NCBI GenBank assembly: GCA_965645245.1
Contig: OZ287071.1
Coordinates: 2,170,001-2,234,000 of the forward strand
Source of the DNA: Massalongia carnosa
Taxonomy: Eukaryota
Length of the DNA: 64,000 nucleotides
Direction of reading: 5' to 3'
Shown: piece by piece, positions 11,766-54,136 of the stretch
Layout of the letters: each line of letters starts with the position of its first letter
Numbering within the stretch: position 1 is the stretch's first letter
Notes under the pieces: generated by a model
The model's database searches: none
The model's input: only the letters and a program-made list of their open reading frames with translations
What the model was told of the DNA's origin: nothing
Translations under genes and position numbers: made by a program

Positions 11766-12974
11766 AGGCCGTGAAAGAATGGAGAGGGAGAATGGAAGGG
11801 GAGGAAGGTAGCGCTAGGCTATTGCACAATAACTAGACTCTTAACAATGACTCTTCCTGGATGAGGGCAGCGTTAGAAATTGACGTTGGCTCACCAAGAC
11901 CCAGATGTTTGAATCTCTCTCTATACTTGTATAGAGAGAGATGACGAGAACTAAGAATGTGGCAAGATATTTTGCAGAGGAAACAATGTGGCAAAGATGC
12001 TAGGAACGTCTCCCAAAGTGAATACATAAGCGGAGCTGTATCAAGAAAAAATTTATCTTGAAACGCAAATTTCGGTATGAAGAATGTAATAAAAACATCT
12101 GTGAACCAGGACTATATCAATTGAACACTTCACATCGCGTGGAATCTAGATGCCTTATTCAGTCAGTTTTGATGTCTAACTATTCCAGTGTATTTACAAG
12201 GCTTTCTTATTCCAAAGGTTGCCTAGCTAGTCTTGAGCATACTGATGTTATCAATGAGATGGCAATGACCCTATCCTTTTTTTGAAAACGTAAATTCGGA
12301 TTTGAAGCCCCCGCTAAAAAAAATCAAGCTGCCTTCATGACCTCTGTTTCCTCGCCGTAACCTCCATTCACATGCTAGTAGGTTTAGGTTTATTCTGATC
12401 CTGCTTGTACAACTGAGCAATGCGAGGTCGCCGAAGAATGAATTGTGGGGGATAAGCCATCTCATAGCAGAGAGCGATACGTGACTCAGCCTCCAGGATC
12501 TTCATCCAGTGACCGAGACAGCAAGATATAGTGGAACAACTGACAACACTCGTATGAAACAGATGTTGAACCGGAAAATCAATCTCCCGAGATAGTTTGG
12601 CGAATTCAATTCTCAAACTAGACTAGGCAGATCTGGCCTTACTAGGTAGTCGCTTACTTCTACAAATTCGACTTAGCGTGCTTAGTACATGGGGTTTCCC
12701 TGGTTGGTATCAACAACGGCTTAAATTACCCGGTTACTTTCTTATGACCATGTTTATGATCGCTTCATGTTTATTTCATCACTCTGAATCTCACGGCCAG
12801 AATATTCCTCACTGCAATCTCTATTTATATACATTCCTTCACCCCGTATTTTACGTCGACCATGTTCACCATGCAGCTAAACCAACATCTGCCGCGGTGA
12901 GACCATTTACGTCGTCTCCGAAGATGCCGGCGGAGATGGGCGCAACCCTTTCTTCTCCTGCCTTATAATCAGCT

Positions 12975-15900
12975 ATGAGCATCTTCAATCCGTCCTTCCT
13001 GGTGGCCTTGGTTATTTTGCTATACTTAGCGTCGTTCGTCATTTTCGCCATCCTCCGGATCGCCACAGGTATATCAATTCAAAGGCTCGGGTATTTCTCG
13101 TTAAAGCGCGTTGCGTATACTCCGAGGGATGGCATACGGATAGATCTACGAGGACTCGGGCTGGTTCTGCACCGGCCGACATTCGCGAAACCGACATGGG
13201 TGAGTCTGCGGTTGACGGAATTGAAGGTGACAGTTGATGTCAAAGCCGTCAGCGGAAGAAATGACCTCACGAGCAAGCATCACGAAGCAGACGTGGTCAA
13301 AGGGGCCATTTCCGCAAATAACCTTCAGTCGTCGATACGAAAGCTGCCAAAGTCTAAAACCCAGTTACAGCATCCGGGTTCATCTCGCAGTCAATTATGG
13401 AAGCGCTTGACACAGCTGAAAGAGAGAATTAAGAGGCTTCATAACAGAATTCACTGGCTGTGCATGGTGGATGTCGAGGTTTTGAACACTAGCTGTGTTA
13501 TCGTAGAAGTTGGCTCGTTCGAGATTGGCGCTCTGAGCTTGGCGGTGGATACGAGGCGAAAGACTGTGGACAGAGGAAGGCTCTTCCAACACAAGCAAAT
13601 TCCTAATAGTGATCAACGTCCGGTGGAATGGATTTTTACTATCAAAAGTGTATTGTTTACACCTGAGGGGAAAGAGTCCCTTGAGGTTCTGGATTTATGC
13701 AGCTTAAACATCCATGGGTTGCTTTACAGTCATTTAGCAGGCCTTCGAGATACTTCGATATCACTGAAATTGGGACGCGTTCATATACCGTACGATGATT
13801 TAATACATTGCAAGACACGGATAGAAGATTGCCTTAACAGTTCCACTGGGTCAGCCGCCAATAGAGAAGACGCAAATATTTCCGTCACAGATATAATAGA
13901 AGAGTGGGGCCGGCCTGGCAGTAGAGAAGCGAAGCTTGTGCAGACAGTCTCCGACTCCAAAGAGTTTGTGAGCTCTACTTTACGTGGTATCCAGGAGATC
14001 CAAATGGCAGTCAGCTTCTTAGGCTTGACCAAGGCTGTCAACTCCATCATGCCCGCCGGCTCTCCTCTATACCTTAATATGTCCATGAACGAATTCGGTG
14101 TTGATCTCCATCGTCTGGATCCCAAAAGTCCGGCACATCGAATGTATTTTTTATCCAAGGATATTGCTCACCAAGCTTTGCTTGCCGGAATATCAATGGG
14201 AATTAGTCTGGATGACGGGAGTGGTAAACCCGAAAGGGTACTGTACATACCTATGGCGACTACAACAGTCAAAACAACGCTACCGTCCAAGACGGTGGCC
14301 TTTTCGGAAGACGAGAACGCTGCTGAGAGAAACGCTAACATCCTCTTTGCAAATTTCGTGGTTACATCACCGTCGATAGATGTCGACCCTAAGCACATGT
14401 CTCTTGTCCTGGCGCTTACCCAGACCGGACACGGGACCTCGCAAAGCCCACAAGGGATCAGTGGTCGTCGTCCTGGACTCATGTCCCGGCTTCTTCCAAA
14501 GGCAAATATTAAGCTTTCTGTGCACGAGCCTGTGTTAAGGGTTGCTCTTCCACCAGCGGATGCCAAGTTAAGGAGCACTGATGAGTATGATCTCCTCATA
14601 TGCTCTATATCTTCAATATCACTCGATGTTGAGTCATCGCACTCTTCTGGAGGAGAGCTGCACTATGCACTTGCCTCCAATCTAAGAGTGTCGTCAAATC
14701 AGCTTTATTACCACACCGCATCTGGGGAACGACATAACCTTCTTATCACTGACACGCTTGAACTCAAATTACAAGTCACTGCATCCCCCGAGGTATCTGT
14801 AATAGCATCAGGGAATCTTCAAACGTTTTCCGTTCACATGGTCCGTCCTGAGATCAGCGGGGGAGTCCGTCAAATTATTCAACAGCTAAGCAGAAAAGTC
14901 GAATTGGACTCCCCACAGCATTCGAAACATTCCGGGGACCGGAACTTCCTGAGGCCATTGCCGCCATGGCTTGTGCGTTTTCAAATCCAGGGATCTAATT
15001 TTGGGGTTGATATTGCCGGTATGGATCCTGATATCTCTAAAGATACTCGAGGCATATCGCTGCAACTCGAGTCTTGGACTGCAGAGTACAAGATACAAAG
15101 AGATGCTGAGGAGGAAAGACCGTCGTCTCGGCGCCGAGGTGCAGCCAAGTCTTCCATGACAGAAGAGCCTTTGATAAAGATCACGCCACCTTCTAGTATC
15201 CCGGAGACTGCTCATAACAATACAGACGCAAGACGTCTGGCTATTCATGTACGAGGTCTCGAAGGATTTGTAGTTGAAGGAATCAATAATGTGGAATCGG
15301 AGTCTCTCATTTCGCTTCCTCGTTTCGAGGTCGCTTTTTCCACATCCAGTGATAGCCATGGTCCAATATTTCATCTCAATTCTCACGTTAGAGCGTTTTA
15401 TATTCAATATTCGCTTTACCGTTACTACGCGGTAGGGTTAGCATTTACAATACTTCGAAAAGCCTTTTTTCCTGATATTGGTCACACATACGTTGACAAA
15501 GTACATCCGCAACCTGCTAACGCTAATTCGAGAGTGGGGGGGTTTCCTGCTCCCACTAGTGTCAAGGAGCTATTAACTATTGATCTTAAGGTAGAGTTAC
15601 TACAGGTCAAGGGGACCATGCCCTCAAATCCGTCAATGATGCTCCAAGTTTTTGGATTGGAGGCCGGTCGTCATAGATGGGCGGTCCCTTTCATGAAATC
15701 GCGGTTGATACGTGTCTGTGCGGAAGCTCCACAAATGCCTTTCACTTGGGCAAGGATTGTCATGTTAAAGACATTGCGCGTCGACCTAAGAGAGAACCGC
15801 AGGAAATCTGGCCGGGCCGTAATCAATGAAAGATCGGTCGATATTTCCACTGAGTACATTAGGCTTGGAGTTCCTCATCAGCTAGTTCTACATAAAGTAT

Positions 15901-18900
15901 TCGATAATTTTGCAAACATTCTAAAGGCAACCGAGCAATTACATCACCGGTTCAAGACTGGAACTAATGAGTACATTCTAAGAAAACACCCTGAAGGACC
16001 TAAAAAGGTGCCACGGATCTCTGTTCGCAGCAAAGTGCTACTGTTTGAGCTAGATGATGGACCTTTCGAGTGGAAACTTGGATCAATATACCGAATAGGC
16101 CTTATTGAGCAAAAGCAGCGACTTGCAAGAGAACAAGCATTCGGGGCTAAAGTAAGAACTATGGAGGATCTTCAACAACATCGAGGCTCTTCCCGATATC
16201 GTACCCATTCGTCACATCCCCAACAACGAGGTACAAGTAAACATGGGCAAGCTCATGATGCCCAAGAGCAAAATGAAGATCTAGAATCTCCTCGGGGTCG
16301 ATCTATGTCGCCGTCCAGTAGGCATGCTCGAAAGTGGAGATATGATCCTGAAGGCAAATGTCGCTTGACAGGGTCCTCCAAGATAACAGCTGAAGAAGCT
16401 TGGCTTAAGCTTCAAAGATACAATGCTCAAAGCTGGAAGAAGCGAATCGACGGCATATATCAGATACAAAATGCTGGGATGAGGGAGATCCGAGCCATCT
16501 TCTGGGGAAACGATGAGATGCCAGATGCTTATGCAACGTTTGAAAGGATACTTGCCATGCCCGAACGACCTGGCCTTATGTCGACACTCATCAGCGATCT
16601 TCACATCATCATTGATAAGCCTTCATTTCCGGTTGGGGATTACCCGCAGTTCTTACATAAAGTTGGGAAGGGTATGCCGCTTGACATGAAGTATACATTA
16701 CTCATTCCGTTGAATGTTCAGATAGACATGGGCGAGGCGCGTGTAACTCTCCGAGACTACCCCTTGCCTTTACTTCATGTACCCTCGATTAGGCCTGGAC
16801 AGTCACCCCGTTTGCCTAGCTGGTCTCTGAAAACCGACTTTGTCATCGCTGAAGAGTGGCGTGGGGGTGAGTCAACCAAAAAGGTACAAGTGGAAGTAAT
16901 CCCGCCAGAGAAATTCTCGGATCCGGAAACAAAAGGGGGGTTCGCTATTGACGTTCGTCGGACAGTTTCTCCTGTAAAGACTTACTCAAACGTTGAGATT
17001 GCAATCAATACTAGTGCTCCAACTAGTATCACCTGGGGTCCATCTTATCAACCAGCGATTCAGGACATGATGATGATTATTGAAGGTTTCACTAAACCGC
17101 AGGTTGACCCTTCCGATCGAGCAGGCTTTTGGGACAAGATTCGACTCGGCGTTCATTCGAGAGTACTCGTAGCATGGAAAGGGGATGGGGATGTTCATCT
17201 GAAACTCAAAGGTAGATGGGAACGCTTGGTTAAATTTATTTATGCTAATGCGCTCAAGGCGCCCGTGATCCTTACGTTGTGACTGGCCATGGTGCAGGTT
17301 TCGTTATGTGCTGGCGCAACAACGTTCGCTGGGGTATTCATCAAGACGATGATGCAAAGAAATTTATGACAGTCACAAGTGGCGAATATGTTTTAGCCGT
17401 TCCAGATTATAGTCATCAATCTCGGGAGAATGTCTCATCAGGCCAGGACGTTGAAAGCATCTCAAGCACAAGTAGCTACAAAAACGGCGCAATGTTTAAG
17501 AAAGTTATTATGAAGCTTTCTGGTAACGTACGCTGGATGGCAGGTATCGTTTTTGAACGAGATCTTGAGCTCGGCGGGAGGTCTTTTGAGTTTCTTCCAC
17601 ATTATAGTGTTACGCTGAGGACCCCTGAGAAAGCGATGGCTTTTTCAAAAGAGGTATGGCTGTGTCTTTATGGGCGCGACAGACTCTAACATTTTCCTAG
17701 AAGTATGACGCTTTCAAAGGATTTCGTAGCAATCATATCCATCTCTCCATCGCGATTGCGGCACCCATTGATCGGGATTGGACTGCGCCGAACGCCAAAC
17801 CTTCGTTGAGCTACAATACAGTCCATTTAAGCCCTCGCTTTTTTACTCATTTCTTCGATTGGTGGGCATTGTTTGCAGGAGTCATGTCGTTGCCTATTAG
17901 ACAGGGCACTCTCTTCCCTGGAATTGAAAAGGCGAGCAAGAAGTTCGGTCGCCATCTTGCAACAATAAAATACAACTTACTTCTCTCGCCCCTTTTCATT
18001 GCACACATGTACAAACACAAAGATGCGGAGGACTTTGCCGATGAACTTCTTTCTGCCACAGGCCTGAAACTTCGTCTAGATAGCTTTATGCTGGACCTGC
18101 ATCAGCGACGAGAGGAGTTTGCAGCTCAAGGCAAATGGCGTGGTAAGCAGGTGAAAACAAGTGGCATGCGCATCAATCAAGCACAGCTCGACTTTATTTC
18201 CGCCGATGTTCGGGCGGTATCAGCCAGCATTGCAGGCACATCTGCAGAAGCTCTGAAGCGCGCCACCGACGAGGAGTTGGCATCTTATCAAGATCCAGCT
18301 CCGAGTGACATGTCTCGTTTCACGATACCAGATAACGATTTTAGCTGGATTGACATGGACGATTTCGTCGAGCTTGATTGGATTCTGCCCGCGGAAACTA
18401 ATCCGGAGACCAAAATAATGCCTTTGGCATATGCTCCGCGCTTCACATACTTTCGCCAAACTGACCATGGAGAGTCTCTTTCTAAAGACGTTGAGAACGC
18501 GAGTTCTTTCGGCAACGAGTCAACCCATTACTGTGTCATGTCCCAAGATAATGACCCTCGGAGGGTGCAATGCGGATTAATCAAGGAACGTATTCGGAAG
18601 ATTGATGAGCATTTGGAGACACATAAGAGAACATTGGGGGAACAAGAACTGCGCCTTGTTAGAGATGGCAATCGCGACGGAGGCCTTAAAGAACGGTATC
18701 AAATACTGAGTGAACAAGGCCATGTTCTTAAGAGCAAGAAGGAATATTTGAAATCCATGCTTTCTCGTTTGAATAGGCGCCTTGATGAAAACAAATCGTG
18801 GACAATGCATGATGCTGATACCGCTGAGCAGGACATGGCCTCTGGCGAGTCTTCTGGTGAAGATGATGACCTTGAGGGTAACGGCATGGAACAGGCTCCA

Positions 18901-21900
18901 CTCTCGGGGCTAACCAGTGACTTCAACAACCGATTCATCATCCACAACGTTCAGCTCAAATGGAACAACTCACTCCGAAATATCATATTACGCTACGTCC
19001 ATCAAGTAAGTCAGCGGCGAGGCTTCGTGTATTATCTGTCCCGCAGAGCTGTCAAATTCATCTTGGATATAGTAGAGGAACAGAACAAAAGCAAGCACAA
19101 ACCTTCGGACGACCCTCCACCTCAAGCGCTCCAAGCAGAATCAGCTCCAAAGGTTTTAACCGAAGCTGATAAAGACCAAGATTCGGATGTCGAGTCTCGC
19201 ATACAGGAGCTGCTTAATGATGCAAAGAGGTTCGTCGATGCAGACGACCCTGTTCAAGCTGAAGCAACCCCTAAGCCAAATACTTATGAAATGGATCAAG
19301 ACGTTTCGCAAAGCTTCACGCCCCTTAACAGTTATCACGTGCGGTTGGTAGCACCGCAAATTCAGCTACAGAGTGAGAAGCATTCGAAATCTGTTTTGTT
19401 GGTCACTGCAAAGAGTATGCAGCTAAAGGTCATCCAAATCATGGACAAAGACCGCATGACCGATGATGTCAGTGGACTGGTGCAGCGTCGATTTTCTGTT
19501 GATATGGACAGTGTGCAGTTTTTCGTCACGAACCAAAGAAGCTTAATGCAATTCCTTCATCTCTATTCTGGAAATCGTTACGGTGCGCCAAAAGGCTCTT
19601 CGTGGCCACCCTGGGTACCATTCGAGGTAAATTTCGATTTTGAGATGAGCCCTTTTGGGTGGTCCAGAGTAGTACAGAAGACTTCTGCGAGCCTTCGCTA
19701 CGAAAAGTACAATACTTTGCGACTGAAGTTTAATGATGAAATTAACAGCGGCAAGCCAGGTCGTTCAAATACGCCGGAAAGCACAGAGAACCGAATCGAT
19801 CATCTCTGGGTTGATTTTCCTCATATTCGAGCTATTTGTGACTCTTCGCAATATTATAGCATGTATGTTATAGTCATTGATCTTTTGCTATACAACGAGC
19901 CGCTGGAAAAGGTTCGTAGCGAAAGGCTGGAGAAAATAATGTTAGCTTCCGATTTTAGCGATTTGAGAGGCGCACCGGAGATGGTGACTAGTCTCCAAGG
20001 AAGGATCCGGCAGCTTGAGGAGATAAAGACACACTTCCAGATACATGCAAAGTATCTCGATCGGCAGGGGTGGCAGGATCGATTGTTGATAGAGCAAGAC
20101 CTGGCGAACTGTGAGGATGAACTGTTCTTCATGATGAAGGCTCTTACTACCTCGCAACGCAAGAGCGATGACCGCAGTCAAACATCTCAAACTAACGGGC
20201 TTCTTCGATGGTATCTTTCAGCCTCCGAGATAGTTTGGCATCTGATGAGAGATAAGAATGAACCGTTAATGGAGATCCAGCTACAGAACGCGGCCTACGA
20301 ACGAACCGACAACAGTGACGGGTCCAATTCTAACAACATGGAAATCCAGCGTGTACACGGGCTCAATCTTTTGCCGAACGCGATTTACCCCGAAATGCTG
20401 GCACCTTTTTCGGAAAGTGGGAAACAATTCACCGAAGGCCAGGATTTTAAAATGCTCAAAGTACACTGGCACATGCTAGATGCTATAGCTGGCATTCCTG
20501 TTTTGGATCAATTTGAAGTCAACCTTTTCCCACTAAAAATTCAGCTAGAAAGAGAAGTAGGTAAAAAGCTGTTTGAGTACATATTTCCAGGGGCAGGCGC
20601 CAACACCGAAAACGGCGGTTTTTCCCCTTTCATGGTCAGACATCTTCCAACCTCACCGAGCGGCGATGGTGAATCAGACGTGGAAAGTCAGCCAAGTTTA
20701 TCCGATACGCAGCCGTTTGAGGGCACTGGATCTAGTGATGATCAGCATCCTGGGACTCGACCTGGATCGCTGGAGATGCGGCTTCGACCAACCCGAGCTT
20801 TCACACAAAACCACAAGTCGAGGCTCGGGAATAATGGGAACAACGGGGAAGCTCACCATTTCAAGTTCTTCCACTCCAAGACCGCGATGAGTCAGGGCCT
20901 GTTGAAGAAACATTCTCGTGATAGCCTACTATCAAACAACCGTCCGTCTCATGACATCTCCTCAACCAGTCTATCCGCCATGAGTGGAAACTCGGAGAAG
21001 CACAAAAAGTTCAAACTAAGCCGTAATGCCACGCGGGATAGTGTGGCGGAGAGCGAAAAGAAACCGCCCGACGACCTCACCCAGATGATGGCGCGAGCCT
21101 CCAACTACATGACTCTCGCTTACGTCAAAATCCCAAGCGTGGTGCTGTGCCTTAGCTACAAGGGTCGAGGGGAGCGGAACCTCGAGGATGTCCATAATTT
21201 CGTGTTCCGCATGCCAGTGTTGGAGTATAGGAATAAGACATGGTCAAACCTTGACCTTGCCTTACGCCTAAAAAAGGACGTCATCAAAGCCCTGATCTCC
21301 CACACCGGCGCCATCATCGGCAATAAATTTTCTCAACATCGACCAACTCGCCAGCAACAAAGTCGGCTCCGTGAACTCGCAAATTCTTCCACTCTACTCC
21401 CGAACAGCTTCACTCTCACCAACAACACCGCCAGTGACACGAGCAGCACGCTTGATCGTAGTCCCATCACTGATCGCGCCGAATCCCCAACTGATAGCCG
21501 GCTTGTAAGGACTAATTCGTATGCTTCGAGCATGAAGAGTTCTCTGGCCAATAGTGGCCTAATCTCTGAACCACCTTCCTTCCTGGAGTCGGAGGCCGAA
21601 ACCACCGAAACGAATGTGCGTTCCCCCAAATCCTCGTCCGATCGTGCTAATTCACTGGCATCTCATTGCTAACGCTTAGTGATTAGTCTCGCAACTTCAT
21701 CCGTGATACGTTCGCCCGGCGCTTCACGAACGATGGTTTAAAATTGCGCCAAAAGAATCATCTCCCGGATGAAGATCCGGACGAGAGGTGAGATCTTTAA
21801 CCCTCTTCCCTGATACCCGATTATTCATATGCGGCCAAAGACAAAAAAGCTAAGACGCACGTAGCAATCGCAAGAAAAGCGTTCTTCTCCTTGGCAAGAA

Positions 21901-23049: not shown

Positions 23050-25200
23050 CCCTCATGCTCCCTCCTCGCCAAGCTTCCCGAGCCCGAGAGATCGTGCAAG
23101 GCCTCTCAGCTCTGCTTCGTCCAAGGCAGTCTGACCACCGTCGTTTACGGCCTGGAGGTCCAATGCAGGTCCGAGGGTTTCGGGGAGCTTCTCGGCGGAG
23201 TGCACGTTTGCGAATCGACCTGCGTAAAATGCAGCGGTGTGCATCCCTCAACGGTACGGCAGTTGGCGTCTTCAGGGCTAGAGAAAGCGTGATAGAACTA
23301 TGTTGAGAAGCCGCAGCGCTTCCTTCTAGAGTGCTGCGATCTGAGTTTGGGGCATGTAAACGAAACCAAGAGACTTTTAGGGTTTCTAAGTTAAACTTAC
23401 CTATAGGAAACGCCGCAGACGTACTTTGAGATGGTAGTACCGGCGCTGTAGATGATGAAGCCGGAGTGTTTGGTCAGGTTTAGCAGATATAAAACATGTG
23501 GAGCCATGTAACATGCCCACCCTAACACGCTTCTATAGCGTTCCTGCGTTTTAGCGCAGGGAGTGATGAATTTCGATGGTCAGCTCCGTAATTTACTAAA
23601 ATATCAGCGCAATCGAAGAACCCCCCAGTCACTGTGAATGCAAAGGCAGTCTTATCACCAGTATCGCACTGGATAAACAATTACAAGCGCCTCTTCTGCT
23701 AAAAGGATACTTCAAACATGCTTTAGTAACAGCGGAATCATCTCGGGGGTCCAGACGGAAGTATAGAATAGAATCCTCCATTCCGTTGGATGTGCAATTA
23801 TAAGTGTCACGCCTGAACGAAGTCACAAATCAACGACCTCGAGCCGATTCCCGACAACTGCCGTTTGCAGAGGAGTCGACCAGTCCTTGCCGGAGAGCTG
23901 AAACTCAATCAGAAGCGGTAGAAGGTAATGGGGGACCAATAACTCTTGTCAGCTCTAAGGAGGTAAATGCGCTTGCCATTTTTAATAATGGAATACCATA
24001 GTTCTCTCTGTAATGTTGACACATTGTTTCGATTACCGAATTTCGAAGAACGGTAGATAGATATTCAGATAAGTCTTTTCCAATGATACCCGGGAACGAG
24101 CATCGGCCTTTCTTCCGGTTGATCTTCCTGAATAAAGTTGAGCGTTTCGCTGAATTGGGAGATAGATAAATTTACAGCTGCCTGTCAAAGTGGGCTCACA
24201 TCCTCATCGTCTTTACAAAGCGGGTTCAAGCCAAAACGAAGCAGTAGATGAGCGGTAGCTAAACCCTGCGGCCCATTCCTATCCAAGATGGAGACCAGAG
24301 AGGATCAACCCAGAATACCGGTAGCGCCTTTATTAGAACTTCAGGCGATGAACTTTGAAGCCATATCCTCCATGACTTCGAAACATAACTTGTCCAAGTG
24401 TTCAAGCTCCGTGGCTGAATTAGAAATTTCAGTGCTCGTAGTGGTATCAGGTAGTAGGCGACCTCGTAATGTCCGCCTTGGCAGGCCATGAACAAAGGCG
24501 TCTCTTTATAAACCTTCAGAACGTTCTGGTCACCCTCTTCACGAACAAGAAGTTGTACAACTTGGGCGTCTCCCATGCCAGATGCGTAATGGAGCCATGT
24601 CATGCCGCTTTCCTCATAACATCTATTGACATCAAGGTTCGATTCACGGATTAGTTATAATAACCTAGAGGGAGGGCTCGGTGGGTATTCTTTGCTGTAT
24701 TTTTCACTTAAAAAATCTTCTTCGTAGCCACAATATGTGGTTCGCAGTTCCTTAATCGACTAAGACACTTCTTCAGGAAAAATTTCCATCATAGAAACCT
24801 CGCCGCTGATAACGAGGTCTGAGACGACTTATACAATGCAAAGCGAGTTCTAGGTATGATCTCGAGAAAGCTTGTTCAAGTTTTTTGTCTCTAGGCGGAT
24901 ATGGTATGATACCAAAGAAATAGGTGCATATTTAGATACATACCTTGACTTTACGCGCGAAGACCTTAAATACTCCCAACTCCCTTTGCCATTCACCTGC
25001 AAGATTAATCTCAACTTCGAAACCTCGGAACGGAATGCTCCAGAAACCCTTGCTCGTCTTTCTAGGTCATATTTTAGGTCTTGTAAGACTGATGATTCTA
25101 ACCAGATCAGCTCGAAGTCAGCGCCACCACAAAGTGCACTAACAAGGTTGACACAAATGCTTGCTGGCATATATATATATATTTTTAAAAACTTTGGCCT
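23050..25200 (-). pseudogene. Multi-ankyrin-repeat protein pseudogene
   Basis: Scattered ankyrin repeats in shifting frames with stops: TWLHYASGMGDAQVVQLLV, ETPLFMACQGGHYEVAYYL, LLLRFGLNPLCKDDEDVSPL*QAA, STPLQTAVVGNRLEVVDL*LRSG, DANCRTVEGCTPLHF, DLQAVNDGGQTALDEA. Boundaries approximate. Confidence 0.8.
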
Positions 25201-26632
25201 GTTTATTATGACCAGCATGGCCGGCCAGGAACGTGGGGGAATCACCGTGGACTGACACCCGCAATATGAATAGCTCTGATATTGGTAGCAAACTCAGCTA
25301 AAGTAAAGGGCGAAATTCCCATCGCCCTGGGCTCGGATGCGAAATATGCGGAGGTCAGCGAACAAAGATCCAATGAATAGGCTTCAGCAATGACAGAGGA
25401 CGGATTCCTTTGCAATGAGTCACCTGGGCAATCCTAGTTTCATTGCTAATAGGTAGCATGTTAGTCATGCCGAAATTGTATATACCACGGTCTGATGCGC
25501 TCTAGCGCTGTATTATAAAATCCATGGCATAGAAACGTGCTCTCTTCGTGTTTATCCAGCTGAAGACTTTCGCCCTAAGTTGCAGTTACCGGGTACAGAA
25601 GGTCGGCCCCTGCTGCCTCCGCTTTGTGGACTGGTCCATTCCCAACCGTACCATCTCCCAGCTACCCAAAATCCCGCTAAACCACGATTTAGCTTAGTAT
25701 TTGCAGAGTAATGCAATAGAGGGTTCAAGAACCAGTGATTGCTTTGCATTAGGGTTCCCAGTTTATCCATGGTTTTCAAGGTACTTTCTTGAAAAGGTGG
25801 CGAAACGATGAGTAAGGATTGTACTCGTAGGTACTCAATACTAAAAACTTTAGATCTTGGTAACCCATATGATATCTATAAATTGGATAGCTATCGGCTA
25901 TTGAAAGAAGAATAAGACTCAAGATTTATGGAGGTGCGAAGTTGTTTCGAGGACGTAAATCTACGATAAATTCCAGTTTGAGAAGGATTATCTATGTCGT
26001 AGATTAGATTATCATTTTGCAGAGTATGGGGAGACTTCCTTCCATATGGTTTGGCCAATAATTTTAAAGTCAGCATTGAGTGCATGAGAGAATCGATGCC
26101 ATTGTAGTCAGTATATTGCTGAAAAACATCTTTACAGTTCGTTAATACGCAACAGATCGACACGGAGCCCACACTTAAAATATGAATAGTGTAGGGGTCT
26201 CTTAGGAATTCATTAATTGAAGCATTTCTTTTTAATTATTGGTTTAGCCGGGCCTTCCCAAAGGAAAAGTAATAATAGAGGAATCGAGTAGATCATGACA
26301 CCATTAACTTTGTGTCGCCTACAAACGTTTTCGCTTCATCGAGAATGAAATAGGTGCTTATACTATGAGATAGAACGTATACTCTAGTTAGGGTGATGGT
26401 ATCCTTGTGTGTCGCCTATTCGTGGTCCAGTAATGTTGATCGGTAAGGTGGCGTTGACCTTGGCGGATTTAATTGCACCGAGAATTGGCGGTGTCAAGAT
26501 GAATGTAAAATATGCTGAAATCTAGTAGGTAGTAGGTATGAAAAAACTGTGAGATAAGTTTTAAGGAGAGAAGGTGGAAATGTTGGGAATTGTTAGTATA
26601 TATATTAGTTCCAGAAACTATAATTTTAACTG

Positions 26633-26903
26633 GGGCAGATGGCGCAATGGTTTGATTGTCAGAAAAGGTGAAAAGGTGGAAATTGCGCCATCTTATAAAA
26701 TGAAGTGCCCTTCTTTACCGGCCGTTATAACCGGATCGACCTAGCCAACGGGGAAACCCCTTGGCGGGGGCCGGGTAATTATACAATGAAAACCTCGAGA
26801 GGGAGGTATTTCGTAGAACCTTTCTCTCTTAGGAGAGAATGGTTTGAGCTTTTTGCCATCCGGAGGTCCTAGGTTCAAATCAGGCGGAGGGAGTTTCTAT
26901 TTT
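26633..26903 (+). ncRNA. Putative Pol III-transcribed, tRNA-derived structured RNA (family unassigned)
   Basis: TATATATATT at 26597-26606; GGGCAGA followed by A box TGGCGCAATGG (26640-26650, tRNA positions 8-19); B box GGTTCAAATC (26872-26881); T4/T8 terminator 26900-26912; several internal stems. It does not fold into a canonical cloverleaf. Confidence 0.6.
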
Positions 26904-29900
26904 CTTTTTTTTAACCCCAACAATATCATCAACCAACCAACACTCAGTAACAACTAGGCCACCATCGATGATTTCATTTGTCTTGTTCTTGCTCAGCACC
27001 AATGAAGCTATACGCATGGGTATTCTCCAACTTATTATCAGCTCTCCCGCTAAGCTCTTCAACTTGTGATCGACGACTAATAGCAGAGAGAGAAGGTTCA
27101 GCTTAATTGATTTCTGACAAAAGATTTTTGATTATGCAAACCAACTAATTTAGTATGCTAAGAGCATATCTTCCACGGTGTTTTTACTCTTATCGTTCAA
27201 TGGCCTTGCAGTTCTTCCTCGTATCACTTGCATGGAACAATCCATCTCTCATCCAGTCATCGGGTCTTAGGCCTTGGCACTGGTTTAGGCAACGGCAAAT
27301 CTCTTAAGGCGCAAGTGGGTGGGAGCAACAAATAAACAAGAGCATTGAAATATTCAATGCATGGCGCTAGAAGCTAATGAAAGATTTTGTGCGCAATTGT
27401 TACTTTGAACTAACAAAAGCAATGGAGCAACCAACAAGCATCTCGAGTATGCAGCAGCCAGAAACTATTTAAACTCAGCCACGCAGGTTAGTTTAGTTAA
27501 TTCGACACGTTGTCGAGGTTGCAGCTGTCGTATGTGAGGTTAGCAGTCCATAGAAGATCTACACGTCCAGCGTTAAATTTTGCCGCTGCCGCGTTTGCCG
27601 TCAAAGTTCTCCCCCAAACCGGAGCTTAACAAACAAAATATGAATCATCAGTCTTACTCCATCAAACTTCCTACATACTTACAGATAGAGCTTGATATAA
27701 TGGATCATTCATTCCCGATAAGCATAAATATTGCTTTACACGTCGATATGGTAATGCTCAACAAGACACAGAACCCGGTGTTCGTTTGGTTCGCCATAAG
27801 AGAACCAAGAGGCTGCTCGACTTACGAGCAACACAGGCTTTCTTAGGCTGCTTTAACCTTACAATCTGTGCTTGGGGTAGTGCTGTTGGAGACTACTACG
27901 AAAATCTAGCAGCAAATTACCCTTCTATCATCAAAACCTATAGTTTCTGTCCAGCTCTCCGTGGTGGCGACTCAGGATACCACTACAGTCGGTCTCCTCC
28001 TTTAGGTCGTATAAGATAACTCACCTCTCGTTATCTATATCGGAAGAGCCTACCCACTTGCCTATCATGATAGCTAAGAGTGTTCGGCAAACGAGTTGCA
28101 TCTTACGGTAGACAATCTTCCAACGACGACAGATCTCAGGGTAAACATTCGTTACCTAGCTGAAGGTTTGATAATATACAACCAGAAATATCAAAACTTT
28201 CATTACAGATTTTGCCATTGGCGGTAGATATCGTATTATTTAGGCTCTTTCCAACAGTAGCAGCTAAGTATGATATCAGGTTCTCTCATGGAAAGTAAGA
28301 CATTTTTGTTTCTTGCGCAATACGCTTCATTCCTATTGGCAAAACTCTTTGAGACATATACTTAGGGACTGCTAGCCAGACACATTGAGAGCTTGAAAGA
28401 CTTATAATATCTCCATACAGGTGGGATTAACTGAGAGTTATAATCTAGTAGAGGCAAGAAGGAACTATGATAAAGCGACATTACTATAGATTTCATCAGC
28501 ATCGAATTATTAACTACAGAGAAAAAGCAGAGATTTTGATGGCTCAGCCATTGTAGAGTCATGTCATTGATGTGGTACTGGTGGGCCATTCGGCTTTCAG
28601 GGTTGGTTCACGCTTTCTCAATTTTTTCTAGCGTTGTTTTTTGGGAACATTTAGCAGAACGATGACTGGAAATCTCAAAAAAGACCTTTCGACAGCGAAC
28701 AAGATTTCAATGCGTTACTAAAATCATAGCACTGACAACTGTTTCGATATCAACCATCAATGAGAACCATCTCGCTTTGGTCTCGGGTATGCTCAAAAGC
28801 AAATATCTTCCGATTGAAACTTTAGGCACCAAAAATTATGGCAAGTTTTGAGTGTGTTGCAGCAATTGCAGGATGGCGAATAGCGGGCTGATACCCAGAG
28901 CACTGGGAAGTTGTAGATGCATATTATGTTGAGCTATCCTTAACTGATCGGCCAACGTATGTTCTCGATATACTCAAGCTGTATTGCTCAGATGGGCCAT
29001 CCACTCAGAATTGATGGCTTTCGCGTGGTAAGGTTCCTCCTCGTAATTTCTTATCCCAGACCTGCCCGCCTAGGTGGAACCAAAAAAATGCAAAGCAAAC
29101 TAGGAGCCAGTTTATTAACTCACCAGCCGAGTTCAGGGCTTGTGTTTTTTTAGAATAGATCTTCCCTAGATCCAACTACAGAGCCTGAGTTACAAACTCA
29201 ATCGGATGGAGAAGCCCCTTAACTTTCTTAAGAACCTCGCCGACCCAGGGTGCAATCTCCCAACGGAGGATCTGGAGGTATTTTCGTCAAGAGTGTTAGT
29301 TGTGGAGCGGATGCTTGCTCTATGTAGTCTACTCAAGCTGAGAAGGTAAGACCCGGTTATTAAGATAGAGAAACCTATTACTCAAGTCAGAACTCTCCGG
29401 CGAAAGTCGCAGTTTCTTTCGATTTCTCCACCTACAATATGGCAGCACTTCCATATAACTTGTTGATGTTGAGCCTGAGTCACAGTGTAACGCTCTAACG
29501 CTCTCAACTGCAACCCGAAGATTTTATTTGAACAAGTTTAAAATCTAAATAGGTATTTTTTTTTCTTCCTGGTGATGGATGGGATAAAACCATTGCTGTG
29601 GCATCGGTCATCGAAGGTAGAAATTAAAGCTCCCCGGAGGTTCTTTGTTTTATCGCGAGTAGTGAACGGGTTCGAGAAGAATATGGCTGTCATACAGTTC
29701 TAATAAACTAGTTTTTTTTCGCTTTCTTATTTGGAACCTATGCGAAGTACTTACCTCTGCTCACGCTTCAGTATGACTTCAAGGTGCGATAGCGCCAACG
29801 TCTGTCGATCTCTCAATATCATGGTTCTCGGGTTCTACCTGATGCTTCGAGAAGAACACTGGTTTACTATATGTTACCGTTGGGTCTTTAGCCAAGGTTT

Positions 29901-30201
29901 GATTAAATTGTTGTCGGTCGCTTTGTTTCATATATTCACTACCGCAAAACTTGATTTAGGCCGTTAAGTCTCCTAGGTCACCCAGGGATGCTTTGCGATT
30001 TAGAACGATGCAGGACCCGGTTGGTAGGAGCGTCGGATTGTTGTTGGAGTTCTACGTATCACGATATCAGGAAACAGACGACTATTTAAGTATTTAGATT
30101 TTTTGTCCGCGTTTGAATTACGGATTATTTCCGAAGCTTGAACGCAAAGCCGTCTGAGATTGGGATTACGACAAACGCTTGAAGTAATAGGTAGGTTTCG
30201 A

Positions 30202-31063
30202 TCACATTGCTATCGGCTGATCTGCCGGATACTGGTCGACTCCAGAAGCATCAAAGTTAATGAAGTTATTGTATATAGGATTACGTTGGATTTCATTGTC
30301 GCTGGACCAGATGTTGTCCGCGATACCGCTCCCAGTTTTATCATAACTTATTAAGGGAGCGAATTCTGAGTTCCCCCCAGCCGCACTATAATCAGTCGAC
30401 TCGGTGTTCAGTATTTCACCCCCAGATGCATCATAACTTATCAATTTATTCTGCACCAGATCACCCTCGGAACTTGCCGCCTCTTTTTCCCGATGGTCAC
30501 CGAGTGGAGAATCAACTTGAATCCCAGGTCCAGCTTGTACACAACATCGAGCACCGTCAAATGGGCAGAGCGATCTAAGGTTCATGTCAGCCTTTACGTA
30601 GTACCAAATCTGATTGCAGACGACGAACGGGTCAGGCGAGAGAACACCTCTGTAAAAAGGCGAGCAAAACCGGTTTTTGTCCTCATTCAAGCAGAAAAAA
30701 TTAAACGCTTTTTGTCCACATCCCTGGTTCACGATGCAACAGGACAGGCCTTGAGTGCCTTCACCGTGATGATAACACTTAGCGCAAACTCGCCGAGAGT
30801 ATGTTCCGGGAGCGCTGAGAAAGGTGAAGTCTTACCACAGTCTTCCATTATGGACACGCCTTGACACAAAACGTAGCTGGCGCAGTGACCTGTTCGTGTG
30901 GTCCCCCAGTTCTGAATCCAAAGTGATTAGTGGGAGCACGCAGCGTCGCTGAAAGAATAGATGTACTAACATTCTGTACCGAGCATTGATCCCCTGCATT
31001 TTTCCCTACTACGCCTACAAAGCCGACGACCAGAAACCAAGCGTAGCGAAAAAGCAACTTCAT
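30202..31063 (-). CDS. Small secreted cysteine-rich protein (effector or antimicrobial-like candidate)
   Basis: Exons 31063-30971, 30911-30836, 30758-30202 with GT-AG introns and branch sites, frame consistent. Signal peptide MKLLFRYAWFLVVGFVGVVG, 13 Cys in two modules each ending in CC, acidic tail. Confidence 0.75.
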
Positions 31064-33133
31064 ATCTCAAAGCCAAACCTGGCGAAAATTCACTTAAGCG
31101 ACGGGCAGGTACAAGACGTTTTATAGTCATCTGAAAACACGCCATCACAAATCGACTAAATCCGGGAGAAACGGGAGGATCTCACCAACTCCGAAATGAG
31201 AAGTAAGCGATACCTTCAGACGAAAGCTTAAAAGGAATGATCAAATGTCACGCAGACTCTATGAACTACGAATCCTCCTATATCTTTAAACTTTGTAGAA
31301 AGCGCAAGGATAACGCACAGGCAACCGTTATGGAGGCTTGAAGAGGTAAAATTCTTATTTCAGCGAACTTCGAACCTTTAAACACACCCGTAGGCGGAGC
31401 GTTTACTTCTTTCTCGTTCTTTGGGACTTTTTACAAGGCAGCCAAGCCGCACCGGTTTGCGGTTTCCCCACCTTTTTCCGAGTCGAGTTTGCCACGCGAC
31501 AGCCCGTCCGTTACCGACGGGTCGGAACGGGATTATGGATTCTGGTTTCTAGCTTTGTACCAAGGCTCAACAAGATCTTGCAGAAAACCTGCTCAAAACT
31601 TTACGCATTTCAATGGCGATGCTTGTGGCGATACCGGACATTCTTTCGAGATGATGTCCTGTCATCTATGAAAGAAACGCACGTGACCATTCCTTTCATC
31701 ACGCTGTTTCTAGACAATTGTCATTCTCTGGATTCATTTCATTTTTAGTACATTTTTCGTAGTGGCAGGCCTCAGCCGCAGTGACCGCCATGGGCCAAGT
31801 ACCCGTACCTGGGATAATATCAACACGGTCAGCTTATCAGACGAAATCATATCAAGGAATCGAGCCCGTGAGAAGGCTATATAGTATGAAGAATGGGTAG
31901 GGTATGGCAGACGAAAAAATAAAGAGAAATCCTTCAAAGCGGTAAAATTATGAGTATTAAACCCCTGGGGATATACCGACAGCAGGATCAAGGCCCATTC
32001 ATGCCTTGTTGGCTGCTTCGTCGACGAGCGAGCCTAAGTTTTTCGGAATGGTCGAGAAGGCCTAATCAAGACTGTGGGTTATACCTGGACGCATCCAGAA
32101 AGTTGATCAAAATCATGGCGAAATAATCTAACGACTTGGGAGCAGAACAGCTGCGTCTTCACAGCACGGCCGACAAAATGTAGAAACTCTCCAGCGTGAT
32201 TCATCGATGGGTTTTTCCTTCTCTCTCTCTATATAACGAGTTGTAATTATCAATCAGGATTGAGCCCACTCCGCACCTTTGCACTCTCAGGTCCCGTGAG
32301 AAGCGTTACGTACCGTTAAATAAACCCTAAGCTAAGACGGATAAAAGTGGGTCCGCAGCGAAGCGCCAACGCAAGAGTTCGTGTATGGCATTTCTGGCTA
32401 GCGGACAAGTCTTTGCCTCTTTTGCCTCCCTTTTCACTCCCTGTAACTTCTCCGTACTCGTAATCGTAATCCATGCTCGCTCATCCAATCAATCAACTCC
32501 TCTTAAACTCCGATCCCCGATCCCGACTCAGAGATACAGCCAATCATACCTGTACAAAGCAAGCCCAGAGCATGGTGTGCATTGTGCCCGCCTGCAGGTC
32601 CCGCTGTCTAGTCCCAGAGCAAAAACGCCACTTCGCCAGATCCAAGCTTACAACTCCTTACTTTTTGGAATTATCACCGTTCAATTCTTTTAATTTGGTT
32701 CCACAGTCTGTCGTTACTTTCCGGTCTTTTGTATATACGATAACGTCAAGTGTCTCTCAGCGTCTTTTCAAACCCCCATACATACATTACGGAGTATATA
32801 TTGTGCTTTTTTTCATGCATTAAACACAACCTACGTCCCCGGCACCGTGAAAGGAGAGATTCAAATTGAAATAATTGATCTCGATTTTGTGTTTCAAGCT
32901 TTTGAATTGTCATTCATTGCGTTGGAATTTCCATTGAAGGAACGAGGGATCCATTAAGCAACTAGGAGATCGAGCGTTCAAACCATCACCCATCGAGTAT
33001 CGTCATTAAAGCCATCAGATCTGCAAAGTCCATTCACAAGCCCTTTCAAATCGGTCCAACGCATTTGTCCGTCAACAATCAGACTCCCACACAAGGACCT
33101 AAAACCCACGCGACAACCCCACAATCTCCAAAG

Positions 33134-33688
33134 ATGCGCGTCGGAACGTTTTTCATCATCTTCGCCACACCCGCCGCTCTCGCAGACGACCTCTCCCCCT
33201 CAGCAACCTCCACGCAGCCTCGCTCAGACACGATCTACACCCCCATAACCACCCTACCGCCAGTTCCTCATCCCCATCTCGACCTCCGCGCCCACACCGC
33301 CACAACTCCCAAAGTTACTACTCCGGCTGTGGCCCCTGTCGCTCCAGCTGCACCAGTCGCGCCCGCCGCACCCGTCGTCCCCCCCGCAGCCCCAGCCGCC
33401 CCAGTCGCCCCTGGTGGAGCCGGCGCCCCTCCCGCGGCTGCGGTACCCAAACCCCCAGGGGATGGCCAGGTCCCGACTATCACGACCATTATGCAGAACA
33501 CGGTTATTGGTGGGGTACCGAAGCAGGTGCCCGTTGTGTACACACAGACTTTTGCGAAGGTGCCGAGTCAGGGCCCAGCGCCGCAAGAGGGGACAATCGG
33601 GTTGGGGACTTTGACCAAGGAGGGAGGTGCGGCGAAGGAGACGGGGAGTGGGGGGAAGTCTAAGCGGTGGGTGTTTGGGCGGTGGTGA
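33134..33688 (+). CDS. Secreted Pro/Ala/Thr-rich Kre1-like cell-wall protein
   Basis: Signal peptide MRVGTFFIIFATPAALA, (PAAPVA)-type repeats, and Kre1-like motif VVYTQTFAKVPSQGPAPQEGTIGLGTL. Confidence 0.75.
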   Translation: MRVGTFFIIFATPAALADDLSPSATSTQPRSDTIYTPITTLPPVPHPHLDLRAHTATTPKVTTPAVAPVAPAAPVAPAAPVVPPAAPAAPVAPGGAGAPPAAAVPKPPGDGQVPTITTIMQNTVIGGVPKQVPVVYTQTFAKVPSQGPAPQEGTIGLGTLTKEGGAAKETGSGGKSKRWVFGRW

Positions 33689-47305: not shown

Positions 47306-48577
47306 CGTTGCTAAAATTGTCCCTGCTCAATGGAAAAGGATAATTCAAATCACGCTCTCCTTCATGTTGGCGCATCTCCGGCACTTGTCATTCCTGCCTC
47401 CACTGCATTAATCGAGACATATCCATTTGTGAGAGCTATGTCTCCGATGCAAGAGGTTTGCGCACAGCTGAGCAAATGGTTGGGTCCTTCGAATTTACAA
47501 ATCATGTCAATCTGAAAAAAATCGACTTCCAGGACGAATACTTGGAAACCTAACCCCTTTTACTACACCGTACAGATCTCAAAAAAGCATCTCGACCCAA
47601 AGCTTAGGCTCAGCCATCCTTTGCGTTGCGAATTCCGTGCAACCGCCAAAAGTTTGATTCCTCAGGCTTTCCTTTCCAAGTCTTCTGATGGATGGATGTT
47701 GGATAGGCGCTGTGGGCTGAGTCGCATGTTCATCTTCCGTCACCCCTTGATAGTTATCCTTCTACGCTTGCTTTCTCTTGCTACAAAAGCCATTTCGTTT
47801 GTGTTTTCGTGTTCTTTGATGCCAGCGTGTTGCTTCTGGGGGGTTAGGTTGGGGGCTAGGGGCCAGGATTTGGTACTAGGGTAGGAGGGAAAGGGGGTGG
47901 GATGGGATATTACGATCACACCTTTTGTGGCGGGGGCTGCTGAGAATGTTTAACTAACGACTGCATACGAATCTCACTATGGTACTTCGATTCTAGGGCT
48001 TGTTCCCTGTATACATTCCGAACAATTTTTGCGATGGTAATGTTTCGTTGAACGCGTAGTATTTACCACCCAAGTAAACAGGCGTGTCGCAGGCTCATGC
48101 CTTCTTTCCAAAGGCGTATGTATCAGGGATTATATTGGAAGACAGATATGACATCGTGAGCACTAAACATATCCGGTCGGTAACCCGACAGATTGTCGAG
48201 TTAATCCTGAAGCGCATCATCTCGTGAGCTGACGACATGTGACGAGGGGGATGGCATGACGTTGATTTAGAGTTGTTCCTGCCCACGCCACGGAAAGGAA
48301 AAGGTGAGTCCGAGGGCTCACGACTTACCCATAGAGAAGGTTTACCCGAGCACACTGGGATCTGCACTCGCTTCGCTTTGGGGGCTAATCATGAATTTAA
48401 CGCTTAGGTAATCGCAAGTCATTGGAAATCCGCAGGCAGTTGATTACCTGAAATTGGCTTTCTTATTAAAATGCAGCTGCGCAAAGCATGCGCAAAAGTT
48501 CTGATGAACGATTTCTTAGTCTGATATACAAAGGAAACAATGAGGGTTTAACTGGGAACATATAGCTGACATCTAAA

Positions 48578-52376: not shown

Positions 52377-52792
52377 ATTATGTAACTAGATTATTAGAAA
52401 ATAGTAGACGGGGGAGGGGAAGTGTAATCCTGTAAATAGGGATTCGGGGAGGTTTTATTGATTTTTTGGTAAAGTATCATTCTATTTATCTAGCATCTAT
52501 CTACTTATTCATTAATCTCATTCTCAGCCTTCCGTTCCTCACCAAACCCGTTTCCACTCCTCTTACCCTTTCTTTCTTTCTTCCATTCCTTCCTTCCGAC
52601 TAGCTATCTCCTTCCACCCAACCCCCTTATCTATATATCTAGTGAATACTCAAACATTTCCCCTCCCCTTCCCCCCTCGAAAAAAACCCCCCAAAAAAAA
52701 ACCAAACAAACCCGCCGTCTTTCCCCCATTCTATATACCTGCCACTCGGATAACTAGACGGCCGGTCAATCGGTCGGGTACTTACACATATA

Positions 52793-54136
52793 CAGTCCCG
52801 TGCCAAAAGTCTGCGGCCCAACCCGTAATTTTCGTGATTTCGCGTTTTCAACTCATCAACCCCCCATCTTTCCACCTCATCATTTCACCATGCTTCGTGC
52901 TTCTTTGACCCCCATAAGTGGTAATCGGCCTCGTAACACTGAATTGACGCCATATCAACGTGGTATGATTGTTGGGGCCCAGGCGTTGGGGCACACACCG
53001 ACCGAGATTGGGAAGACTCTTAATTTCACTAAATCGACCGTGCAGAGCACCATTCAGAAGCACTCAATTCGCAACGACGGCGTGTCTAAATCACGTTCTG
53101 GACGGCCTGAAGTGCTGTCAGAACGCGATCGACGTTATATCATCAAGCATGCACGAATCAATCCACGAATCACTTATGCACAAATCAAACTAGAAGTGGG
53201 GCTCCGCTGCAGTCGTACGACCATTTATCGGGCACTCAAACTGTATGGTTTAACCAACTGGGTGGCTAAAAAACGACCTTTATTGACGCCTGAGGTGGCC
53301 AAGAAACGATTGGATTGGTGCTTGCTGCGGCGTGAGTGGACTTTTGAGCAGTGGTCAAGAGTTATATAGTCAGATGAGTGCTCGGTGGAAAAGGGGTCAG
53401 GAAAACAGCGTCAGTGGGTGTTCAGATTGCCGAAAGAAAAATGGAATAAAGAGATGATACAACCTGTCCCCAAAGGCAAAGGAGTCAGTGTCATGGTCTG
53501 GGCAGCTTTTTGGGGAGATGACAGGTCAGATCTTTACAAATTGGCTCGTGATTTTGCTGCGAAGAAGATGGGGTACTCGGCGAACTCATATATGGAAGGA
53601 ATTATTGAACGATAATCTGCTTGGAATTTGGCAACCGGGCCTCATTTTCATGCAGGATAACGCACCTATACATAAGGCTAAAAAGGTGATGGAATGGTTC
53701 AATGAGAACGGCATAGAGGTCATCGATTGGCCCCCCTATTCACCTGATTTAAATCCCATCGAGCACGTTTGGTATGTGCTCAAAAAGCTCGTCTATCAAG
53801 TCAACCCGAACATAGATTTGGTGATCGGCAGTGATGAAACTGTTCGTGAGGTACTTTGGAAAGCGTTAGAAGAAGCCTGGACGTTGATAGATGTGAAAAT
53901 GATGAGGAGGTTAATAGAGAGCATGAATAGGAGGATAAAAGCGTGTATAGCGTCGGAAGGATGGTATACTAAATATTAAAAATCAATTTTTGGGGGAATT
54001 CTTGTTTAGTAGGTATGTAATCATTATGTAAAAGTTTCAAGACATTTCAGCAATCGTGACGTGGTTGATTGTTGATTGAATAGAATGATTGAAATGTTGG
54101 TGGGGTGCGGGGCCGCAGACTTTTGGCCTAGTACTG
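52793..54136 (+). mobile_element. Tc1/mariner (impala-like, DD34E) DNA transposon, full-length but defective
   Basis: 27-bp TIRs at 52793-52819 and 54110-54136 (23/27 identical), flanked by TA on both sides; 1344 bp long. Confidence 0.95.
52890..53979 (+). pseudogene. Tc1 transposase with premature stop and frameshift
   Basis: HTH (ELTPYQRGMIVG...RSGRP), VI*SDE (TAG at 53367), frameshift near 53595, FMQDNAPIH and WPPYSPDLNPIEH with 34 residues between D and E. Confidence 0.92.

Follow-up and report, generated by a model that had tools for sequence, protein, structure and literature searches.

A hairpin-rich candidate orphan RNA polymerase III-type unit of putative tRNA-gene descent in Massalongia carnosa

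To our knowledge, few fungal RNA polymerase III (Pol III) transcripts have been recognized beyond tRNA, 5S, U6, signal recognition particle (SRP) RNA and RNase P RNA. RNA170, ZOD1 and the Neurospora microRNA-like RNAs (milRNAs) suggest that this list is incomplete. Here we describe an element of about 280 bases (26633-26912, plus strand) in a stretch of 64,000 nucleotides (nt) from Massalongia carnosa (contig OZ287071.1, positions 2,170,001 to 2,234,000; hereafter the window). An earlier note, made from the letters of the window, had proposed that a tRNA-derived noncoding RNA or small-RNA precursor is transcribed here by Pol III. Our analysis partly supports this interpretation: the element is a real and unusual sequence feature, and the description that suits it best, as far as sequence can tell, is that of an orphan Pol III-type candidate with tRNA-gene ancestry.

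In yeast, the ancient tRNA genes ZOD1 and iYGR033C are still weakly transcribed by Pol III, and RNA170 is a Pol III RNA with no known function (PMC5356446). Like these three loci, the element is single-copy, intergenic and not a tRNA, and it carries tRNA-type A- and B-box promoter elements (PMC5356446). It differs from them in that its boxes lie 232 nt apart around a strongly structured insert, and in being known from sequence alone. The yeast U6 gene (SNR6) has an upstream TATA, an internal A box, a terminator and a B box in its 3' trailer (PMC5095917, PMC5356446). The element would show the same order of signals if an internal run of five Ts (T5, 26850-54) terminates transcription, whereas read-through of T5 to a run of eight Ts (T8) past the B box would make its layout tRNA-like; unlike SNR6, it has no U6 sequence, U6 structure or Rfam U6 match.

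The rodent BC1/ID RNAs are tRNA-derived Pol III products, and the 5' end of BC1 resembles tRNA-Ala but folds as a hairpin and not as a cloverleaf. The rodent 4.5SI gene is likewise tRNA-derived and has A and B boxes along with a TATA-like box near -30 that its transcription requires (PMC10137851). Both boxes of 4.5SI and BC1/ID lie in the first ~70 nt, and these RNAs are members or derivatives of repeat families; by contrast, the element is single-copy and fungal, with a distant B box. The earlier note was correct in describing Neurospora milRNA precursors as Pol III transcripts: these milRNAs depend largely on Pol III, and milR-4, located between two tRNA-Ala genes, needs RNase Z (PMC3547838). 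The milR-1 to milR-4 precursors are hairpin RNAs made by Pol III at intergenic loci which, like the element, have TATA-like elements and poly-T; complete tRNAs flank milR-4 (PMC3547838), whereas the element has neither a cloverleaf nor a flanking complete tRNA. Its perfect stems of 5-12 bp are short for Dicer products. Two tRNA-like pieces of the element resemble the head of a tRNA-derived short interspersed nuclear element (SINE), and the weak similarity that Rfam reports between the 5' piece and mir-3473 (14-16 bits, where the gathering score is 71.8) is of the same SINE-head-like sort. Unlike tRNA-derived SINEs, the element is single-copy, has boxes 232 nt apart and ends in a T-run instead of an A-rich tail or one resembling a long interspersed nuclear element. 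Among the papers that our literature searches listed, none described an RNA of this kind from lichen fungi, a thin basis for calling it absent from print.

The Pol III-type signals all lie on the plus strand. A TATA-like run (TATATATAT, 26598-26606) stands 27-35 nt upstream of a GGGCAGA start at 26633, which continues as GGGCAGA-TGGCGCAATGG (26633-50). The TGGCGCAATGG part is the A-box-like motif (26640-26650) and falls within the 5' arm of the first hairpin. The B-box-like motif, GGTTCAAATC, occupies 26872-26881; both boxes match the respective consensus patterns. A T4-C-T8 run (26900-26912, with T4 at 26900-03 and T8 at 26905-12) lies 18-23 nt past the B box and forms a strong terminator-like signal. 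As in type 2 Pol III genes, the A box precedes the B box on the same strand and an oligo-T run is present. Each of these motifs had been listed in the earlier note together with the internal stems, and all were confirmed at the positions that it gave. That note had overlooked the T5 followed by G at 26850-26854, a candidate first Pol III terminator directly 3' of the last strong hairpin. Its proposed transcript size of ~270 nt holds in part: read-through to T8 would give ~275 nt, but a product of ~222 nt, which would leave the B box in the trailer, is at least as likely. Pol III needs at least T5 to terminate in S. pombe and at least T6 in S. cerevisiae; a T5 terminator is stronger when A or G comes next, and T7-T8 terminate efficiently (PMC5356446, PMC5095917).

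The folding of the element is clearly beyond chance. A 268-nt stretch gave z = -3.66 on the plus strand, with none of 200 shuffles equally stable. When the region around it that is free of open reading frames (ORFs) was tiled into 24 segments of 268 nt, the element was the only outlier (z -3.92), the other 23 segments lying between -1.88 and +1.63. By GC-corrected energy over the full window, it ranked third of 709 segments on the plus strand and outside the 12 best on the minus strand. The 222-nt stretch ending at T5 (26633-26854) folded more strongly than the 268-nt stretch (z -4.39, 0/200 shuffles equally stable), and its fold includes three pairs that join the 5' and 3' ends ahead of the U tail. 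In the 268-nt fold, the B box pairs with 26840-49, and two long-range helices use G.U pairs and thus exist only on the plus strand. All strong hairpins are confined between the A box and T5.

Hairpin 1 (26633-26697, plus strand) consists of a perfect 12-bp stem (26637-48/26682-93), claimed earlier and recovered by our inverted-repeat search, together with three 3-bp segments and a 7-nt loop. A microRNA-like precursor would yield discrete, Argonaute-bound RNAs of 19-25 nt; of the hairpins here, hairpin 1 is the only one to reach ~21 pairs, bulges included (-21.3 kcal/mol, z -4.10, 0/200 shuffles equally stable). It is followed on the same strand by a domain closed by CCGGCC/GGCCGG (26718-26773), which encloses a GAAA-capped hairpin at 26744-65. 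The inner GAAA hairpin (26740-69) gave z -2.56, with 2/200 shuffles equally stable, and the whole CCGG-closed domain (26718-86) only z -1.37, with 19/200. The third plus-strand hairpin, ACCUC-GAGAGG-GAGGU (26788-26811; ACCTC/GAGGT at 26792-96/26803-07), is extended by flanking pairs in the full fold (z -2.96, 2/200 shuffles equally stable). The last, AACC-U-UUCUCUC-UUAG-GAGAGAA-U-GGUU (26815-26846, plus strand; TTCTCTC-TTAG-GAGAGAA at 26822-39), has 12 pairs and one U.U mismatch (-15.7 kcal/mol, z -3.87, 0/200 shuffles equally stable). The hairpin-by-hairpin z values were -4.10, -3.87, -2.96, -2.56 and -2.23.

The element cannot be filed under any known family. Across the 64-kb window, Rfam gave no match at the gathering score; at E<=10, only HOTAIR_3, mir-3473, nqrA-II and MIR8032 appeared, at 13.7-16.5 bits against gathering scores of 55-80, which is noise. 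Covariance models for 5S, U6, SRP, RNase P/MRP, small nucleolar RNAs (snoRNAs), ribozymes and riboswitches gave no match, in agreement with the earlier statement that hallmarks of 5S, U6, SRP, RNase P/MRP and C/D snoRNAs are lacking. Comparison by eye with the motifs of these RNAs likewise found no SRP helix-8 internal loops, no CR-I/CR-V blocks of RNase P/MRP and no C/D boxes, and Rfam concurs.

Descent from a tRNA gene is plausible, and the case for it is mainly one of geometry: as in a tRNA gene, TATA is at -30, the A box at +8 and the T-run 18-23 nt after the B box. The tRNA-like pieces of the element are two, namely the first ~20 nt and an AGGTC with 4 nt directly before GGTTCAAATC. The latter arrangement we take, by comparison with tRNA numbering, to be the spacing of variable loop and T stem. 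The earlier label "tRNA-derived" thus kept these two short pieces in its favor but passed no model-based tRNA test. ARAGORN, for which locus L001 and other loci served as positive controls, reported no tRNA or transfer-messenger RNA in the window, introns and pseudogene thresholds included, and the tRNA family RF00005 gave no match at E<=10. At the 80% threshold, ARAGORN did return 26819-26892, which we regard as noise because it is one of 38 such matches in the window. A tRNA gene interrupted by one insertion or intron was also considered and rejected: ARAGORN recognized no tRNA in any of 10,556 variants that each lacked one segment (left edge 26640-26730, right edge 26760-26875). Separately, the sole ARAGORN match in the window at the 90% threshold was 33058-33139 on the minus strand, a tRNA-like fold with a TTA (stop) anticodon in a GC-rich ORF region, and is probably a false positive.

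We found a single copy of the element in each contig set that contained it. With 25600-27900 as the query, X1 (1.8 million contigs) and X3 (8.7 million contigs) each contained one matching contig at >=80% likeness; the two sets carry the same organism label and identical sequence, and they may be the source of the window. The lichen metagenome X4 also contained one contig at >=80% likeness, and no second copy was present in the window. These searches cover copies of at least 80% likeness, a level at which lower-likeness or very short copies would escape. The single copy argues against a family of SINEs or of miniature inverted-repeat transposable elements (MITEs), and the many copies expected of a SINE were not seen. 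A nuclear insertion of mitochondrial DNA was likewise rejected, as no second (mitochondrial) contig was found at >=80% likeness. The earlier note had named a significant Rfam match and dispersed copies as outcomes that would count against its proposal; we looked for both and found neither, at the gathering score and at >=80% likeness, respectively.

The X4 contig was the most distant relative reached, with 17 substitutions over 2293 nt (99.3% identical). Inside 26633-26912 it has two indels, one extra A in the hairpin-1 loop and one T fewer in T8, and one of its substitutions, C26732A, falls in a weakly defined region. X5 (low depth, different organism label) left 26755-27216 and 26293-26446 uncovered. 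Its contigs are identical to the window up to 26295 and 26739 and then continue with 190 and 173 nt of unlike sequence; the breaks could reflect an assembly chimera or a structural variant cutting the element.

Scanning metagenomes for an A box and a B box separated by a gap of 206-236 nt gave 52 loci, 30 with tRNA genes (mostly arrays) and 22 without. Using nhmmer, we found the interior of the element in none of the 52. Blastn against the same loci gave matches of at most 38 nt, most of them on the two box-bearing pieces; the rest were 12-19 nt long, with E >=0.6. In prokaryote contigs (596 billion bases), the 20-nt core of the GAAA hairpin had two matches of 21-24 nt, about the chance expectation, and viral contigs searched with the two hairpin-1 arms gave no match.

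In the model that we infer for how factors bind, how the RNA is transcribed, where it ends and what it may do, TFIIIC would bind the B box at 26872-81 and the A box at 26640-50, and TFIIIB would sit on the TATA-like run ~30 bp upstream. Pol III would then initiate at 26633 or a few bases upstream. A partial stop at the internal T5 would produce an RNA of ~222 nt, and read-through to T8 one of ~275 nt. The predicted RNA structure has four near-perfect hairpins, each independent of the others; its 5' and 3' ends would be drawn near each other, and its 3' tail would be oligo-U. Were T5 used, the order of TATA, A box, terminator and B box would be that of the yeast U6 gene and not of a tRNA gene. 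This U6-like layout is the most economical model because T5-G directly follows the last strong hairpin and the 222-nt fold is even better. Since the perfect stems measure only 5-12 bp, we rank a stable ribonucleoprotein or La-bound RNA with a lineage-restricted function above a Dicer substrate. For the small-RNA precursor suggested earlier, we found no support other than the presence of hairpins.

The reading that we tentatively favor is a single-copy candidate locus descended from a tRNA gene, which would have kept only the Pol III control signals around a hairpin-rich insert; such a tRNA-gene-derived, Pol III-competent unit, with a U6-like order of signals, may make a structured RNA. In its favor are how rare the signal set is, how strong and locally confined the folding is, the near-perfect stems of a single-copy sequence with no sibling copies, and the yeast precedents, in which ZOD1 and iYGR033C are still transcribed and RNA170 is an orphan RNA (PMC5356446). 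Nearly as likely is a silent relic: rearrangement, together with inverted and direct duplications nearby, would have broken up an old tRNA gene, leaving no stable RNA, no function, and box-like pieces that remain only because a reader searched for them. The observations that follow weigh against the reading that we favor or suit such a relic. The A and B boxes start 232 nt apart, and yeast TFIIIC reportedly tolerates far longer spacings in vitro (Baker et al. 1987). In yeast tRNA genes the spacing is 31-93 nt, a range that the element exceeds by far; variable distances are accommodated by an elastic TFIIIC (PMC5356446, PMC5095917). T5 lies within the proposed unit, the 3' strands of the T stem and of the acceptor are not complementary, and no tRNA model recognizes the element, even in part. 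A covariance model that we made from 20 bacterial tRNAs, picked independently of our A-box/B-box search pattern, matched the window eight times at noise level, never within 26597-26912. All five local stems are palindromes with Watson-Crick pairs only, the expectation for DNA-level inverted repeats, and the 268-nt stretch folds equally well on the minus strand (z = -3.95, 0/200 shuffles equally stable). A purine-rich 19-nt direct repeat (17/19 identical) links the upstream flank at 26563-81 with the hairpin-1 loop at 26665-83, and AATGGTTTGA, found after the A box at 26646-55, recurs 192 nt later at 26838-47. These short repeats suggest in-situ duplication; they may be traces of it or may be chance in A/T- and purine-rich DNA. 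Substitutions in X4 were as frequent inside the element (2/280 nt, 0.71%) as in its flanks (15/2013 nt, 0.75%), and one of them, G26837A, breaks a TTCTCTC/GAGAGAA stem pair whose predicted probability is 0.998; the X4 variant loses 2 kcal/mol of 98.5. X4 shows no sign of constraint, yet its divergence is too small to exclude constraint. The surrounding 6.7 kb resembles decaying DNA, with one fragment of an ankyrin ORF and a Pfam family in none of 18 other ORFs. Against silence and decay, neutral decay should not leave five near-perfect stems or the sole folding outlier of 24 segments, and near-perfect stems are hard to keep in single-copy sequence without selection or a recent origin; we saw no sibling copies that would point to a young mobile element. 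Nor does any simple insertion history fit, given the failure of every single-deletion variant to restore a tRNA. Moreover, the yeast relics ZOD1 and iYGR033C are still transcribed, so that "relic" and "silent" are separate claims (PMC5356446). If the locus is silent, it is an ordinary relic, and its main lesson is one of caution: taken by themselves, A-box and B-box motifs are about as frequent as chance predicts.

That caution also bears on a very improbable alternative, in which the motifs coincide in ordinary intergenic DNA or the locus is the last copy of a dead mobile element (a SINE or MITE). Taken singly, the boxes that our favored reading requires are indeed at chance level: the window contains three A-box matches against 1.72 expected and three B-box matches against 1.20 expected, and very many windows were scanned. 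One B-box-like match, GGTTCGATTC at 24636-45, lies inside the ankyrin ORF, showing that such motifs arise by chance. TATAWA occurs nearby at 19 per 13.4 kb of strand, a chance of ~3% per 20-nt slot. The ordered combination with TATA and a T-run is nevertheless rare. For an A box with a B box <=400 nt away, a TATA at the -30 slot and a run of T>=6 no more than 40 nt off, a rough product of observed frequencies gave a joint chance frequency of ~6e-6 per 64-kb window. It is very unlikely, even when a large scan is allowed for, that chance brought this signal set together with a z near -4 inside one stretch of 270 nt. In favor of this alternative, the 7-bp sequence TTTTAAC is directly repeated on either side of the unit (26624-30 and 26909-15), another short repeat that may be a trace of local duplication or chance. 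Against it, terminal inverted repeats and an A-rich tail are lacking, no second copy was found at >=80% likeness in the contigs of X1, X3 and X4, and the boxes are 232 nt apart. We also consider it improbable, though less so, that the hairpins belong to another kind of functional element. This could be a structured noncoding RNA made by RNA polymerase II (for example, an H/ACA-like snoRNA at ~26633-26788); it could also act as DNA, for instance as an insulator or extra-TFIIIC site or as several clustered palindromes that bind factors. An H/ACA RNA has two hairpins with internal guide pockets, an ANANNA hinge and an ACA 3 nt from its 3' end. Here, hairpin 1 is followed by AUAAAA, and the second domain by an ACA at 26783-85, ~17 nt beyond the upper stem of that domain. 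The TATA-like run at -30 would suit RNA polymerase II equally, equal folding on both strands would suit DNA palindromes, and TFIIIC-only sites occur in yeast (PMC5356446). Hairpin 1 speaks against the H/ACA assignment, as it has a perfect 12-bp lower stem, an upper stem of only 3 bp and no pseudouridylation pocket; in addition, no snoRNA family matches, 120 nt of hairpins downstream of the ACA go unexplained, and a TFIIIC site has no need of hairpins.

If a structured RNA of tRNA-gene descent is indeed transcribed here from a U6-like promoter layout, it would show how new RNA genes can be made out of tRNA genes outside animals, and the locus would help in probing how flexible Pol III promoters are in filamentous and lichen fungi. 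More doubtful is a fuller version, in which a tRNA gene gave rise to a fungal Pol III gene that is restricted to its lineage and has a split promoter and a functional four-hairpin RNA of ~222 nt. In that case, the A and B boxes would have come to lie 232 nt apart, the B box would stand past the first terminator as in U6, and the hairpins would have evolved between the boxes. Such a gene would be a fungal counterpart of rodent BC1 and 4.5SI and the first RNA of this kind from a lichen-forming fungus.

The window is fungal nuclear DNA. Its ORFs encode Hobbit/FMP27, RPC4, a Zn2Cys6 cluster, a fungal rhodopsin domain, KRE1, UreD, a cyclin and CrcB, and a lichen-metagenome run contains 71% of the sampled words from 26000-27500, which makes a lichen-forming fungus likely. 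The element sits in a 6.7-kb stretch (23473-30202); all 46 stop-to-stop ORFs of the window that reach 150 amino acids (aa) fall outside it, which bears out the earlier description of an ORF-free neighborhood. GC content there is 39-46%, against about 48-53% in the adjoining genes. The "GC-richer block" of the earlier note is real but only modest: GC reaches 44-56% at 26700-26900, compared with 26-52% in the flanks, and the 5' hairpin itself has 36%. The only recognizable coding remnant in 23473-30202 is a 131-aa ankyrin-repeat ORF at 24259-24654 on the minus strand, probably what is left of a larger gene; the 18 further ORFs without a Pfam family in the surrounding region are those of at least 70 aa. 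We detected no strong signature of repeat-induced point mutation, the dinucleotide indices around the element being unremarkable, and only three tiny tandem arrays.

Among the neighboring genes, one of the Hobbit/FMP27/BLTP2 family (12969-21672, plus strand) comprises two long ORFs, 12969-17282 and 17701-21672, which span profile positions 798-1269 and 1358-2349 and are presumably separated by an intron or gap. The gene for the Pol III subunit RPC4 (48566-50692, plus strand) and the candidate Pol III unit are 22 kb apart, a proximity that we regard as coincidence. Further along, a broken DNA transposon of the Tc1/mariner type (52788-54141) has 32-nt terminal inverted repeats (52788-819/54110-141) that are 84% complementary, and its transposase is split over two ORFs, with HTH_Tnp_Tc3_2 at 52758-53369 and DDE_3 at 53458-53979.

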